From IMG/VR virus record IMGVR_UViG_3300033463_000045, positions 48,266-112,265 of that record: DNA of 64,000 nt; one strand, 5' to 3'. Each line of letters starts with the position of its first letter. Within the stretch, counting starts at the first letter, position 1. Below, piece after piece: positions 8,154 to 49,784 of the stretch. This DNA comes from a virus (lineage: Duplodnaviria; Caudoviricetes). The notes under the pieces are model-generated. The model saw only the letters and a program-made list of their open reading frames with translations. It was not told where the DNA came from and did no database searches. The position numbers were made by a program, and so were the translations under genes.

Positions 8154-8257
8154 ATATATATTAGAGATATGATAATAATAAAATAATATAAATATATGTT
8201 AATATTAAAACATATACCAGAGTGTCTCAGAATGCATAAGAAAGGATGTGAATTATT

Positions 8258-9490
8258 ATAAAATTAAATGAATTAAAAGATAAATGTAATCAATTAAAAA
8301 TTATTCCACAACCAACAAGAAAAAGAAGAAATCCTGATAGATTAGAAGTTTGCGCTGATGATTGTATAAGAGCAATTCAAAGATATAGTATAGACCAAAA
8401 GAAATCTTATGGTCTATATGACTTTAATTTAGAAGCATTAATTGGTATTAAATCACCAATGTTAGCATTATTAATTAAGCATCAACCTGAAGATGTTCAA
8501 AAAGAAATATGGAATGATAATAATTATAATTGGAGATTTGAAAAGAAATATAATGGCGTAAGATGTTTTATTTCATATAATAATGAATTGAAAAAGATTT
8601 TTATATATGGAAGAGAACTAGATAATGATACATTATTGCCAAAAGATTATACAAATAGATTTCAAAAAATAGCATCTGATGTTTTTGATTTATTTCAAGC
8701 TGGATTAGTTGGTTATAGTTTTGTTATAGATTGCGAATTAACTATTAACGATTATTCAAAAGATATAATAGAAGATATATTAAATGACCCATATAAAGAT
8801 ATGGAAGCATTTAAATATGAATTTAATGCCTTTGATATATTTTCTACATTAAGAGATGGAACAATTTATAGTTTAGCAAGATTATCTGAAAGAATAAATT
8901 TATTAGAAAAAACAATGCAACGTCTTACTCCATATAATTTACCAATATATTTAGTAATGTCAAAACCCGATAATGTGTCAAAAGAAGATTTTTATAAATC
9001 AATAATTCGTAGTGGTGGAGAAGGAGTTATTGCTAAAGATTTAAATTCATCTTATGATTTTCGTGGTAAAAGAAATGGTGATTGGACTAAAATTAAAAGA
9101 TTAAATTATGAAGGAGTTGAAAATTTAAATGCAGATACTTACGATTTATTTGTATCTGATTGTATTATCACTGATAATATGGTTAGCGGTTTAGAATTAA
9201 GTAGTTATTTAGTTAATGATAATAATGATTTTATATATGATAGATTTAATAATCAAATTCCAATAACATTAGGAATATTATATGACTTATTACCAGAAAC
9301 TAAAAAGTTATTAACATTATATGATAATAATGGAAAGCCATATATAAATCCAAGATTTTTAGATATTGTTGTAGAAGTAAGGTCTACAGGATTTGATGAT
9401 TATGTTAATCAATTACAAAATTTAAAATTTGTATGTTGGAGACTAGATAAAAATTCAAGAGATTGTAAATTTAATAAAGATAAAATATAA
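8258..9490 (+). CDS. lig: ATP-dependent DNA ligase; probable non-AUG start at ATA 8258 (ORF track starts at 8459)
   Basis: PMLA, EKKYNGVR, DCEL, AFDI, EGVIAK, WTKIK motifs; frame open from 8252 with AAAGGA RBS upstream. Confidence 0.8.
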   Translation: MKLNELKDKCNQLKIIPQPTRKRRNPDRLEVCADDCIRAIQRYSIDQKKSYGLYDFNLEALIGIKSPMLALLIKHQPEDVQKEIWNDNNYNWRFEKKYNGVRCFISYNNELKKIFIYGRELDNDTLLPKDYTNRFQKIASDVFDLFQAGLVGYSFVIDCELTINDYSKDIIEDILNDPYKDMEAFKYEFNAFDIFSTLRDGTIYSLARLSERINLLEKTMQRLTPYNLPIYLVMSKPDNVSKEDFYKSIIRSGGEGVIAKDLNSSYDFRGKRNGDWTKIKRLNYEGVENLNADTYDLFVSDCIITDNMVSGLELSSYLVNDNNDFIYDRFNNQIPITLGILYDLLPETKKLLTLYDNNGKPYINPRFLDIVVEVRSTGFDDYVNQLQNLKFVCWRLDKNSRDCKFNKDKI

Positions 9491-36812: not shown

Positions 36813-37019
36813 ATGGCACTATTAAAGAAGAAAAAGAAAAGTAAGGTTGCTGCTGAACCTATTGAAGAAGCAGTTGTTACAAATTTAAATGTAGAAGAAG
36901 TAGATGAAGAAATTCAAACTACATTTAATGAAGACCCAGAAGGTGTTTTTGAAGATGTAATATTTATTGACGAAGAAACTGCTTTAGAAGCAGAAGAAAT
37001 AGAAAAGGAGGATAACTAA
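36813..37019 (+). CDS. Small protein with basic N-terminus and acidic tail, in the lysis cassette
   Basis: AAGGAG RBS; TAATG coupling to the endolysin. Confidence 0.55.
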   Translation: MALLKKKKKSKVAAEPIEEAVVTNLNVEEVDEEIQTTFNEDPEGVFEDVIFIDEETALEAEEIEKEDN

Positions 37020-38011
37020 TGCCTAACTTTACTAAAAGAACTAGTAAACCTGCTAATGATAATAAGAATTATATTTGTAAAAGCGATGGTGGTTGGAATA
37101 CTTGTATACATGGAAATCCAATGGATAAATATTTAACTGCTTTGGCCAATTGCGTAGGTGGAGCTAGTGGTCGTCTTAATGAAATTGTAAATGAAATTAA
37201 TGGAACTACTGGTTGTAAATATACAAGATTTAATTGTAATGCTGAAGGTTTCTTAAAGAGAGCACAAGAATATGGTTGGGAAGTTAGTATGACTCCTAGA
37301 GCAGGTTCTATTATGTGCTGGGAAGGTAAAGGTTCTCTTGCTGGACATGTAGCATCTTGTGAATCAGTATTAGATGCAACTAATAGAGTTTATACTTTTG
37401 AATCTCAATGGGGTGGAAAAGCATCTCTTAATACAGTTAGAACAAATGATAATGGTCGTTGGGGTATGAGTAGTAATTATAAATTCTCTGGTTTCTTATA
37501 TATTCCAGAAGTAGTAGTTGAACAAATTACACCAACAGTAGAAAGAGATATTTATACAAATCAATTAAAATTAAATAAAGATATGAACGTAAGACTAGGA
37601 ATTGAAACTACATCAGAATCAATTGGTTTAGCACATAGTGGAGACGTATTTAATTATTATGAAGAAAGACAAGGTAATTCATCTAAATGGTATGCAATTA
37701 CTCCAGATAAATCTCAATGGGTTGCTGGTGTAAATAATGATGGTACTAAATATTGTGATATATATCCAGCACAACCAATACCACCAGAACCAACACCTAC
37801 ACCAACTCCAGAACCTCCTGAACCAGAAACATTTAAAGTAGGAGACATTGTAGTTCCAACTAGATTAGTTAATTATAGAGGAACTCCGGTTATTCAATAT
37901 GACCCTTGGTATAAGATTACTGAATTACATGGTGATAGAGCAGTATTAAGTGCAAGAGGTCAAATATGGGCAGCAATGAATACTAAAGATATTACTCATT
38001 ATAAAGGTTAA
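37019..38011 (+). CDS. Endolysin: CHAP amidase/peptidase with SH3-like cell-wall-binding domains
   Basis: ANCV catalytic Cys, AGHVA His, ESQW; Pro-rich linker. Confidence 0.8.
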   Translation: MPNFTKRTSKPANDNKNYICKSDGGWNTCIHGNPMDKYLTALANCVGGASGRLNEIVNEINGTTGCKYTRFNCNAEGFLKRAQEYGWEVSMTPRAGSIMCWEGKGSLAGHVASCESVLDATNRVYTFESQWGGKASLNTVRTNDNGRWGMSSNYKFSGFLYIPEVVVEQITPTVERDIYTNQLKLNKDMNVRLGIETTSESIGLAHSGDVFNYYEERQGNSSKWYAITPDKSQWVAGVNNDGTKYCDIYPAQPIPPEPTPTPTPEPPEPETFKVGDIVVPTRLVNYRGTPVIQYDPWYKITELHGDRAVLSARGQIWAAMNTKDITHYKG

Positions 38012-45949: not shown

Positions 45950-47206
45950 ATGGCAGGAATAATTGAACAAGATTTTACTCATTGGTGTAAACCAGTTCCC
46001 TTAAATGATGATTATCCTGATAAATTTGATTTAAAATGCATAACTTCAATAGAAGAATTAAATAATATTTTAAATAGTTATAAAAAAGAAGATGGAACTT
46101 ATCCTATGATGGGATTTGATACAGAAACAACAGGTTTAAATCCAGAAGAATGTAATATTGTAGGTTACTCATTTTCATTTGACGAAATTCATGCTTATTA
46201 TGTTCCAGTAAAACATACTAATATTGAAGAAGCTGAAAAAGATGAAAATGGAAATATAATTAAATACCCAAAAGTTTATATATCATTAGGTGACGAAACA
46301 TTAGATATTATTTATAATGTAATGTTAAATTGTGAATTGGTATTAATGTATAATGCTAGATTTGATATAAGAATGGTGAAATGGTATAAGTTTAGCGAGT
46401 CAGATGATAATTATAAAAACGAATTTATAACTAATGCTAGAATGAATTTTAAATATAATATGTCTAAAGTAAATGTATATGATATTCAAGTTATGATTTG
46501 GGCAACAGATACAGCACATTATATGCCTAAATTAAAATGGGCAGAATTACAATTTTTAGGTTGGAGAAGTAATACATTTCAAGAAACAAGTGGAGATGCA
46601 GGAAATTTTGGTTTATTAGACCCAGAAGACCCAATAACTTATAAATATGCAGCCACAGACGCATTGGCATTAATAATGTTATATAATAAATTAAAATGGG
46701 TTAGAGATGAAGCAGGTTTATCTTTACAAATGCATGCTAATGGAAAAATAATGCCTTTAACTTATTTTGAAGAAACTCCTATTTTTGCAGATGTAGAGTT
46801 ATTAAAAAAGCAATCAAATTTTTATCATACTAAAGTAGATGAAATAGAAAAAAGAATATATAATATTGTAGGTTATGAATTTAATATAGCATCAGGACCT
46901 TCTAGAGCAAAAGCATTTAAAGATAAAAATATAATTATAATGGAAAAAACAGATTCAGGAGCAATCGCTACTGGCGCAAGTGTATTAGAAAAAATACAAA
47001 AAGAATTAGACCCAGATTCAGAACAATATATTTTAATATCTTTATGTATTGAATATTTACATATTAAAAAGATGTTAAGTACATATATTGATAGTTTATT
47101 AGAACAAACAACTACAGATAGTCCAATATATAAAACAGGTTTATTTAGATATAGTTATAGAAATACTGCAACCGTTTCAGGTAGATATGCTGGAGGTAAA
47201 TTTTAA
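45950..47206 (+). CDS. polA: Family A DNA polymerase, N-terminal part (3'-5' exonuclease and thumb)
   Basis: FDTETTG, YNARFD, YAATDA, EFNIAS, TATVSGR; ATG 45950 follows AGGAGG. Confidence 0.85.
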   Translation: MAGIIEQDFTHWCKPVPLNDDYPDKFDLKCITSIEELNNILNSYKKEDGTYPMMGFDTETTGLNPEECNIVGYSFSFDEIHAYYVPVKHTNIEEAEKDENGNIIKYPKVYISLGDETLDIIYNVMLNCELVLMYNARFDIRMVKWYKFSESDDNYKNEFITNARMNFKYNMSKVNVYDIQVMIWATDTAHYMPKLKWAELQFLGWRSNTFQETSGDAGNFGLLDPEDPITYKYAATDALALIMLYNKLKWVRDEAGLSLQMHANGKIMPLTYFEETPIFADVELLKKQSNFYHTKVDEIEKRIYNIVGYEFNIASGPSRAKAFKDKNIIIMEKTDSGAIATGASVLEKIQKELDPDSEQYILISLCIEYLHIKKMLSTYIDSLLEQTTTDSPIYKTGLFRYSYRNTATVSGRYAGGKF

Positions 47207-47242
47207 TTAAAAACATAATATATAAAAAGGAGAGTGATGCTC

Positions 47243-48421
47243 ATGGCTACCAGTGATTTTTTAATCAATGGTAATCCGTAATTACCACAGAACGTCCCAA
47301 AATTAAAAGGAGGAGATGTAATGTTCTATGTTGCTACAAAAGAACAAATAGAATCATTGCATCCTGAACTAATAAATTATGAACCTAATAAAACAAGATG
47401 TTTTTATAAATATGATAATGGTGAAGTAAGATTTTTTGATAGAATCTTTAATTATTATTTTAGTGATAGACCATGGGGTTTAGAACAAGAATATTTAGCA
47501 GAAGGATTAGACCAACAATGGGTAGATAAAATAGATTATTTATCATTAAATATTAGAAATACTCATAAAGCTCCAGATGGTTGGACATTTGTATGTTTAG
47601 ATTATAGTGCTGAAGAAATTAGATTAGGTGCAATTAATACCGGTTGTAAACTATATACAGAAGCATTTCAAGCAGGAAAAGATATTCATACATTAGTTGG
47701 AGAACAAACATGGGGTTACGATGTATATCATAGTAATAAAAAGAAATATCGTAAAATGGCTAAAATATTAAATTTTAATATGCAATATGGTGGAACAGCT
47801 TTTGGAGCAGCTAGATTATTAAATTGTTCTGTTGAAGAAGCTGAAGATACTCTTAATCGATTCAAAAGCGCATTACAAGACCATTTTACAGTTCAAGATT
47901 CTCAAGTAATAAAAACGCATCAAACATTATGCGAACATACATTTTTTGGTTTACCAATAAGATTACATAGACAATATAATAGTAAAACTTATAAAGAAGT
48001 TTCTCAAGGTGAAAGACTTGCAAAGAATTGTCGAATTCAAGGAACAGGAGCAGATATATTATCTATTGCATTTATGCGATTATGGAAAAAGATATGGAAA
48101 GAATTATCTCATCCAGAAGATTATATTAGATTTCAAATAACAGTTCATGATGAAATAGATTTTCTAATTAGAAATGATGTTTTACAAATATTAATTCCTA
48201 AAGTAATTGATTGCATGACAATACAAATGCCAGAATGGAAAATACCATTAGCGGTAGGTTTATCTTTAGGACCAACATTTGGACAGCAATACGAATGGGA
48301 ATATTCATCTAAAGAAGAAGGTTATAAATTATTAGGACCTGCATTAGAAGAAGCAAAACCTCAAGTTAAAGAAGAAAAGAAAGAAGAAGAGGTTAAGGAA
48401 GAAATTAAAATAGAATTTTAG
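47243..48421 (+). CDS. polA: Family A DNA polymerase, C-terminal catalytic part; in-frame TAA at 47279-47281
   Basis: QNVP, DYSAEEIR (motif A), RKMAKILNFNMQYG (B), IQGTGAD, VHDE (C); own promoter motif and RBS before ATG 47243. Confidence 0.8.
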
Positions 48422-49770: not shown

Positions 49771-49784
49771 AGGAGGTGATGCTA

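Follow-up and report, generated by a model that had tools for sequence, protein, structure and literature searches.

To our knowledge, gene 60 of phage T4, with its homologues, is essentially the sole well-proven case of programmed translational bypassing in bacteria, beside a few further candidates. In T4 gene 60, a 50-nucleotide (nt) bypass reportedly accompanies a mobA homing-endonuclease cassette, as described by Huang in 1988 and Bonocora in 2011. Hops across stop codons at synthetic or adventitious sites in Escherichia coli reporters are said to have been described by Weiss, Dunn, Atkins and Gesteland in 1987, and 'byp' elements were reportedly found by Lang and colleagues in 2014 in mitochondria of Magnusiomyces capitatus (both cited in PMC10732093). 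Here we analyze two interrupted replication genes, encoding a family A DNA polymerase and an SNF2 helicase, in the right-hand 64 kb (hereafter the window) of the 112,265-bp phage record IMGVR_UViG_3300033463_000045 from IMG/VR. Comparison with related sequences makes it probable that the downstream of the two polymerase genes is decoded by a programmed short translational bypass.

Described bypass cassettes combine matched take-off and landing codons, a stop or 'hungry' codon at the A site of the ribosome, a 5′ stem-loop, and protection from endonucleases (bioRxiv 10.1101/2022.08.31.505936; PMC10732093). In the mobA/gene 60 cassette, bypass shields the DNA from the cassette's own nuclease and can outlive that nuclease (Manning & Atkins, bioRxiv 10.1101/2022.08.31.505936). 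In the terminase gene of Streptomyces phage phiHau3, bypass of 10-nt, UUA-led inserts has been proposed and partly shown (PMC10732093). The literature searched, in which gene 60 with its homologues, phiHau3, byps of mitochondria, and hops in reporters are described, gave no instance of a hop in a polymerase or a helicase gene.

The polymerase of the window lies in a single reading frame (45950–48421) broken by three in-frame TAA codons (47204, 47216, and 47279), the first two of which flank a promoter-like box. The features of the locus are as follows:

45950–47206, + strand: polA N-half, containing the 3′–5′ exonuclease and the first part of the polymerase domain and ending ...TVSGRYAGGKF-TAA
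47209–47225, + strand: promoter-like box AAAAACATAATATATAA between the polA halves, with core CATAATATATAA
47227–47245, + strand: extended Shine-Dalgarno (SD) sequence AAGGAGAGTGATGC with start codon(s), as read from the sequence
47243–47278, + strand: polA C-half leader of 12 codons, MATSDFLINGNP, ending at the proposed take-off codon CCG (47276–47278)
47243–47279 (core 47248–47273), + strand: predicted 5′ stem-loop ending at the take-off codon, −12.2 kcal/mol, z −3.1
47269–47287, + strand: perfect 7-bp hairpin TGGTAAT-CCGTA-ATTACCA, −4.9 kcal/mol
47279–47284, + strand: coding gap TAA TTA, absent from intact alleles, whose stop would occupy the A site at take-off
47285–48421, + strand: proposed landing codon CCA (47285–47287) and the rest of the C-half, with palm and fingers, to the stop TAG (48419–48421)
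47307–47323, + strand: internal AAGGAGGAG and ATG 47321, a possible restart site and the start chosen by gene callers

The two halves together contain the exonuclease and polymerase domains of a family A (Pol I type) enzyme with their conserved motifs. The N-half matches Pfam DNA_pol_A_exo1 and positions 2–120 of the DNA_pol_A profile; the C-half (QNVPKLKGGDV-MFY...) matches positions 139–380 of the latter, has Klenow and Taq as its best solved matches, and retains the DYS.EE.R and VHDE motifs. There is no continuous TGRLSS...PNLQNIP segment: SGRYAGG closes the N-half, and the GNP/QNVP motif of the C-half is cut by TAA TTA, so that an unbroken PQNVP is confined to intact relatives and to the product of a hop. 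The N-half open reading frame (ORF), which ends at 47206, shares its frame with the C-half, and the frame past TAA 47279–47281 reads LPQNVPKLKGGDV-MFYV into a 366-amino acid (aa) catalytic ORF (ATG 47321 to 48421). ATG 47243 has the better SD spacing, with ATG 47237 also in frame.

Since a promoter-like box and an SD sequence lie between the halves, this is a genuinely split, two-gene family A polymerase. The split is old and common to relatives, and the in-leader stop is not. N-halves of more than 45 metagenomic relatives (397–421 aa) have the same ...SGRY(A/S)GG end point, and a similar promoter-like box stands at the equivalent place in the relative L004. The C-halves of relatives come in a long form of 386–390 aa, starting M..(D/E)FL(I/V)NGNPQNIPKKKGG.NMFY, and a short form of 365–368 aa called from MFY.

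At the interrupted site, intact relatives read ...FLINGNPQNIPKxKGG.MFY, with GNPQN(I/V)P and no insert. The closest relative, P0271/L004 (94% identical), is intact and reads MSEFLINGNPQNIPKLKGGDVMFY; its DNA at the site is AAT CCA CAA and that of the window AAT CCG TAA TTA CCA CAG, and the window therefore carries a 9-nt insertion (CCG TAA TTA before CCA). Interrupted-allele DNA was fetched for 11 relatives, giving 12 alleles with the window, and all interruptions fall within the same 10 codons. All relatives were drawn from ENA, Logan, and JGI assemblies; blastn, tblastn, and peptide-pattern scans gave no close relatives among cultured phages or in IMG/VR, and six of eight JGI pattern matches were unrelated chance matches. 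Ten of the alleles, each with the displacement from take-off to landing, read as follows:

L059, post-GNP: CCG TAA CCA, +6
window, post-GNP: CCG TAA TTA CCA, +9
L007, post-GNP: CCG TAA GTG CCT, +9
L042, post-GNP: CCG TGA CGT CCA, +9
L050, post-GNP: CCG TAA ATGT CCT, +10
L054, post-GNP: CCG TAA ATAA CCT, +10
L044, post-GNP: CCG TGA and 18 further bases, including a second stop, then CCA, +24
L006, post-QNIP: CCT CGG TGA GAA CCA, +12
L046, post-QNIP: CCT CGG TGA AA CCA, +11
L048, post-QNIP: CCG TAG GTT AA CCA, +11

In place of the TAA TTA of the window, relatives thus have TAA, TAAGTG, TGACGT, TAAATGT, TAAATAA, or a 21-nt gap. A Pro-to-Pro hop explains these 10 of the 12 interrupted alleles (window counted), in all of which take-off and landing codons match, CCG or CCT leading to CCA or CCT. 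Relative to the leader, the downstream frame is shifted in the +10 and +11 alleles, yet coding restarts exactly past the second Pro codon, which excludes readthrough; for one frame-changed allele the gene caller supplied a false N-terminus, 'MAIRKC'. Across the DNA of both genes, displacements of +5, +6, +7, +9, +10, +11, +12, and +24 occur, and a hop over any of them would restore the intact sequence. This allele series cannot be explained by readthrough, by one type of frameshift, or by random decay.

Codon choice at the site is equally patterned. CCG accounts for 19 of the 938 Pro codons in the genome (2%), yet all seven post-GNP alleles use it for take-off. A stop codon directly follows take-off in eight of the ten matched-codon polymerase alleles and in all three helicase alleles; the other two polymerase alleles have CGG there, the stop being one codon further, and CGG is used for only one of 976 Arg codons in the genome. 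This pattern fits the rules of gene 60 homologues and phiHau3: take-off is from a rare codon with a stop or a hungry codon in the A site, and landing is mostly on CCA, a common codon. Reading by tRNA-Pro(UGG) is typical of low-GC hosts, and on this pattern, which may not be that of the host, CCG would be read by wobble.

In the 12 codons from the landing site to Met 47321, the proportions of synonymous and nonsynonymous differences among the seven post-GNP interrupted alleles were 0.84 and 0.11 (pS and pN), a codon-periodic pattern that would not be expected of an untranslated leader. The ratio of nonsynonymous to synonymous substitution rates (dN/dS) for the polymerase body was 0.10. On the tree, interrupted alleles are mixed among intact ones, and even sister lineages can differ in state.

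Folding predicted a 5′ stem-loop in all seven post-GNP interrupted alleles. In the window it is extended by AUGG/CCGU, belongs to the minimum-energy fold, and was equalled by one of 200 shuffles. Its 3′ arm is formed throughout by the AAU-GGN-AAU codons and its 5′ arm by the variable codons 2–5; each hairpin was folded singly, since the 5′ arms sit at differing alignment offsets. The arms covary (GGU/ACC, GGA/UCC, GGC/GCC), and the stem-loops end at, or a few nt from, the take-off codon, with energies of −7.9 to −13 kcal/mol and z-scores of −2.1 to −3.8 in the five alleles compared with shuffles. Intact L004, the sole intact DNA compared, has no comparable stem-loop (−1.4 kcal/mol, z +1.4). 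A stem-loop of the gene 60 type, starting at the take-off codon, is not found in the window, where the 5′ arm of the 7-bp hairpin lies upstream of take-off and is unconserved; a hairpin of that type occurs only in L044, as a small AAUCC-GUGA-GGAUU. An internal SD sequence would not fit in so short a gap, and the nascent peptide DFLINGNP is conserved, yet it is also part of the enzyme.

These results bear on several claims made for the site in a first-pass annotation of the window. The ORF from ATG 47243, its TAA at 47279, and the in-frame continuation into the catalytic ORF were borne out by translation. Both of the hairpins that it described were recovered, mutually exclusive through a common TGGTA arm, with the upstream one in the minimum-energy fold. 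It had placed most weight on the 7-bp hairpin whose loop contains the stop, and this hairpin is present in the window; it is not a shared feature, being absent from L007, L042, L050, L054, and L059, and what the interrupted alleles have in common is the upstream stem-loop. The folding that it proposed likewise separated the two, the upstream structure being significant and the 7-bp hairpin weaker and unshared. The latter exactly repeats, in inverted form, the 7 nt before it, and may be a trace of the insert's origin by fold-back synthesis. The proposed 9-nt Pro-to-Pro hop to NGNPQNVP, whose predicted product equals the sequence of intact relatives, is well supported by comparison, if unproven.

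The SNF2 helicase gene is interrupted in a similar manner:

49785–49901, + strand: helicase leader of 39 codons, ...NASQTGL, ending at the proposed take-off codon CTT (49899–49901)
49902–49904, + strand: coding gap TGA within the Walker A motif
49905–51299, + strand: proposed landing codon CTT and helicase body (LGKT...), matching Pfam SNF2-rel_dom and Helicase_C

The window thus reads ...SQTGL-TGA-LGKT, with CTT TGA CTT at the junction (+6), and the intact helicase of L004 reads AQTGIGKT. L051 and L052, from two independent samples and identical in the helicase region, encode helicases 90% identical to that of the window and have CTT TGA G CTT, a +7 displacement with a change of frame. In L053 the site is ACT TAA CC GGT, with landing on ACC (+5). 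Between the window and L051 (dS ~0.55), dN/dS was 0.063 for the helicase leader and 0.126 for the body. The next helicase ATG, at 49938, has no SD sequence and lies past the GKT lysine of Walker A. Given this late, SD-less ATG and the purifying selection on both pieces, both appear to be translated as a single functional protein, and the helicase is a stronger test of the hop than the polymerase. At the protein level, many further helicase homologues have truncated or out-of-frame-looking N-termini.

Both interrupted genes of the window (47227–47245 and 49771–49787) have an unusually long SD sequence, GGAG(A/G)GTGATGC, which is complementary to the 3′ end of the 16S rRNA of Gram-positive bacteria; the intact genes of L004 are without it. 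The interrupted alleles L007, L042, L044, L050, and L059 follow a GGAG(G/A)TGATGC context, as does the helicase leader. Such strong initiation may offset a costly hop.

The first-pass annotation had read the helicase as following the same logic, which the CTT TGA CTT of the window and the CTT TGA G CTT of its 90% identical relative uphold. The comparison with related polA genes that it recommended yielded the 11 interrupted relatives and the intact L004 matching the hop product. It was also right to discount random damage: intact relatives are without the insert, CCG is rare, TAA is a normal stop, and the genome has no tRNA gene. Its suggestion of phage-wide translational control was not supported, with only two clear split coding sequences flagged and intact and interrupted alleles alternating between sisters. 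The genome-wide stop-pattern scan that it envisaged was uninformative in its naive codon-stop-codon form (1312 matches); a screen for ORFs that stay open far upstream of any start codon returned the polymerase, the helicase, and an unexplained ORF at 8252. The three in-frame TAA codons between the halves, and the promoter-like box and SD sequence that split the gene, had escaped it.

We infer the hop, its efficiency, and the role of the stem-loop from the sequences, allele series, frame independence, predicted hairpins, codon rarity, selection signals, and mosaic structure seen here. In the proposed mechanism, ribosomes would initiate at ATG 47243 via the strong extended SD sequence, translate MATSDFLINGNP, and pause there, the rare CCG being occupied by peptidyl-tRNA(Pro) and the A site by the stop TAA. 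Termination is known to be poor where the last residue before a stop is Pro. Next, the tRNA would leave CCG, the mRNA would slip by 9 nt, probably aided by refolding of the 5′ stem-loop behind the ribosome, and the same tRNA would re-pair with CCA (47285–47287). Decoding would restart at CAG, giving ...NGNP-QNVPKLKGGDVMFY..., as encoded by intact relatives, with an expected junction peptide of ...DFLINGNPQNVPK. In the SNF2 helicase, a hop from CTT to CTT across TGA would likewise restore SQTGLGKT.

Several points weigh against this mechanism. Its support comes from DNA comparison and predicted folds, and unassisted short hops in E. coli reporters, as described by Weiss et al. in 1987, are reportedly inefficient (~1%). 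The helicase 5′ stem-loop was not significant (z ~−0.3). Two polymerase alleles fit poorly. In L049 (~60 nt upstream of L049:2953), a 23-nt insert between the QN and IP codons forms a GC hairpin, CCGGC-TTTAA-GCCGG, with the stop in its loop, and its flanking codons, AAC and GAC, fall outside the matched-codon rule. In L047 (L047:4460–4500), an A run in the PKKKGG region is one base short (CCA AAA AGA AAG) and keeping frame would call for slippage by −1 at A AAA AG, unless the short run is a homopolymer sequencing error. Since intact and interrupted alleles alternate between sisters, part of the conservation signal could predate the inserts. The idea that the inserts confer nuclease immunity is drawn solely from analogy, and no HNH_3 or NUMOD4 gene was found in the genome of the window. 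Finally, a good SD sequence and ATG 47321 lie 39 nt past the stop and could yield a shorter C-half without any hop.

This last point underlies the alternative that survives best, which we nevertheless consider unlikely: that ribosomes terminate at TAA 47279 and a functional C-half lacking GNPQNVP starts at ATG 47321, whether through independent initiation or through termination-reinitiation. The inserts would then be tolerated lesions, perhaps scars of nuclease escape, in a dispensable N-terminal tail, a view to which we give a similarly small share of belief. AAGGAGGAG stands 5 nt upstream of ATG 47321, K-G-G-x-x-M is kept in all alleles, and gene callers begin about half of the polymerase family at MFY. 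The Gly codons of the supposed SD sequence vary, however, and include GGC GGC and GGC GGT. Frequent switching between intact and interrupted states suggests that the interruption costs little; against dispensability, conservation of the tail FLxNGNPQNIPKKKGG is strong among intact alleles and persists at the codon level in interrupted ones. A restart also leaves unexplained why the inserts start with rare CCG and a stop (or hungry CGG), end with a Pro codon, and are linked to a 5′ stem-loop. Nor does it extend to the helicase, where no SD-led start would allow a restart ahead of the Walker A lysine, yet both halves are under purifying selection.

The remaining explanations are each far less probable than restart. 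Damage in a decaying or defective phage, or assembly error, would account for two broken replication genes in one genome with a CheckV completeness of 80%, and we judge it highly improbable: like interruptions recur in independent ENA, Logan, and JGI assemblies, including the identical L051 and L052 from two samples; selection is strong, with dN/dS of 0.06–0.13 in the helicase and 0.10 in the polymerase body; and, except in L047, the interruptions are patterned insertions, never deletions or point nonsense changes. Readthrough or +1/−1 frameshifting, by which the protein would gain 2–8 residues inside the motif, deserves equally little credence. Both sites of the window are in frame, CTT TGA C is the shift site of prfB, which encodes release factor 2 (RF2), and a +1 shift could rescue the +7 form of L051; no single such mechanism, however, covers +5, +6, +7, +9, +10, +11, +12, and +24, two stops lie in the L044 gap, the added residues would fall within GxGKT and PQNIP, and the phage has no suppressor tRNA and uses TAA as its main terminator. 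Removal of the insert before translation, by an RNA cut-and-ligate step or through DNA heterogeneity in the phage population, draws on the RtcB RNA ligase gene between the polymerase halves of L054 and is very improbable, given that the genome of the window has no RtcB, gaps down to 3 nt are implausible as introns, and no conserved cleavage motif is visible.

Under the bypass that we favor, the inserts also have the marks of mobility. At the DNA level, the C-half body of the window shares 89% identity with L004 and 79% with L007, and its 5′ module (SD sequence, start, stem-loop, and CCG) is 85% identical to L007 and L054 and only 56% to L004, which places a recombination boundary at the insert. 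By these alignments, the mosaic 5′ cassette supports transfer, and the insert with its upstream SD sequence, start, and stem-loop appears to behave as a transferable cassette. In five relatives (L042, L044, L047, L048, and L049) a NUMOD4 and HNH_3 gene follows the N-half, and the C-half is interrupted in all five. We infer, by analogy with known cassettes, that the likely benefit would be to break the DNA target of a homing endonuclease without altering the conserved protein motif. The sites look like mobile or selfish cassettes, or scars of nuclease immunity, rather than a regulatory system.

In broader terms, there is about an even chance that an AT-rich, uncultured phage family of ~110–127 kb has transferable 'short-hop cassettes' that repeatedly enter the most conserved motifs of replication genes, are hopped efficiently, and let the DNA escape homing endonucleases with the protein unchanged. 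It seems to us as plausible as not that such a cassette would combine a strong SD sequence and a 5′ stem-loop with a rare codon for take-off, a codon that is a stop or hungry, and, 5–24 nt on, a matched codon for landing. We are evenly divided, too, on whether cassettes of this kind have struck both polymerase PQNIP and helicase Walker A, two in one genome.

The polymerase split site is a hot spot for gene insertion. In L054, an RtcB RNA ligase gene (L054:1876–3099, − strand; E 1.6e-60) lies between the halves, and in L042, L044, L047, and L049 the inter-half interval also contains a dUTPase gene and small ORFs. The C-halves P0122 and P0123 (794 and 763 aa) have long insertions within conserved polymerase motifs which, judged by eye, look like inteins with endonuclease-type domains, marking the polymerase as a repeated target of selfish elements. 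Three 666-aa N-halves (P0014, P0015, and P0023) have an in-frame C-terminal domain of ~260 aa, inserted just before the terminal GG, with weak likeness to PD-(D/E)xK nucleases (PvuRts1I-like_N, E 6e-5).

The phage record has direct terminal repeats; the window has a G+C content of 25.5% and its genes lie on the + strand. Stop usage in the phage is 55 TAA, 22 TAG, and 3 TGA, and a tRNA gene search found none in the genome, hence no suppressor tRNA. As TAA is the commonest stop, this is not a recoded genome; global stop-codon recoding was ruled out by TAA as chief terminator, the two different stops, and the lack of tRNA genes. The promoter-like box tttCATAATATATAAta, searched by its core CATAATATATAA with one mismatch allowed, occurs 24 times on the + strand versus three times on the − strand, nearly always 3–15 nt before an SD sequence and start (45922, 47214, 49387, and ~20 others in the window), and is probably the phage's main promoter class. 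A CHAP and SH3 endolysin (37019–38011 of the window) suggests a Gram-positive host. The ORF at 8252–9490 follows a 356-nt gap behind the preceding gene, and 69 coding-looking codons (IIPQPTRKRRNPDRLEV...) precede its first ATG (8459), with no canonical SD-led start; a non-AUG start or another interrupted gene is possible.

The value of the locus is that of a clean, well-populated case, well supported by sequence comparison. If the proposed bypass is correct, very short hops (6–24 nt) are used naturally in two essential genes of one phage, and the idea from mobA/gene 60 of nuclease protection with the protein unaltered extends to other enzymes and phage lineages. There would then also be a graded natural series of gap lengths, stops, and landing codons for reporter assays, with gaps of 3–21 nt at a single codon as a ready-made ruler for the range and rules of ribosome hopping in bacteria. 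Gene callers annotate such genes as truncated, calling about half of the polymerase family from an internal Met, and such sites are therefore probably under-counted.

Set against known systems, the helicase site repeats the CUU UGA C heptamer of the prfB (RF2) +1 frameshift, with a Leu codon followed by the weak UGA C stop; unlike at prfB, a +1 shift would leave the frame, the window needing +6 and relatives +7 or +5, and there is no SD sequence 3 nt before the site. The Magnusiomyces byps resemble our inserts in being many, short, and mobile in conserved genes, with matched flanking codons and an unassigned or slow A-site codon; in contrast, they are yeast-mitochondrial GC-rich hairpins of 27–55 nt with no link to split genes or homing endonucleases. 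The hops in E. coli reporters share movement of peptidyl-tRNA to a matching codon 5–6 nt on, e.g., Leu CUU across a stop, whereas the sites here are natural, recurrent, apparently selected, and associated with stem-loops.

Closer still is phiHau3, with short (~10 nt) inserts missing from counterpart phages, an A-site codon that is slow to decode and can be exchanged for a stop, proposed stimulation by a local stem-loop and an SD sequence, and two sites in one phage. There, however, the trigger is the rare sense codon UUA, tied to the host bldA tRNA and a life-cycle switch; here a true stop (or CGG) takes that role, the phage is AT-rich, the sites are in its replication genes, and there is a large natural series of gap lengths. 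From T4 gene 60 the present sites differ in their host genes (a family A polymerase and an SNF2 helicase, not a topoisomerase), in lacking sequence homology to the cassette, in gap length (3–21 versus 47–50 nt), in having many gap lengths at one site, in using Pro (or Leu or Thr) rather than Gly GGA codons, in having neither a conserved take-off stem-loop 3′ of take-off nor a mini-SD sequence in the gap, and in being known from sequence. They share with it an essential replication enzyme split in two, a bypass at most a few dozen codons into the downstream gene, matched take-off and landing codons read by one tRNA, a stop or rare hungry codon in the A site, a 5′ stem-loop, gains that are apparently recent and repeated, and an HNH-type endonuclease gene between the halves in some relatives that is lost in others with the bypass kept.

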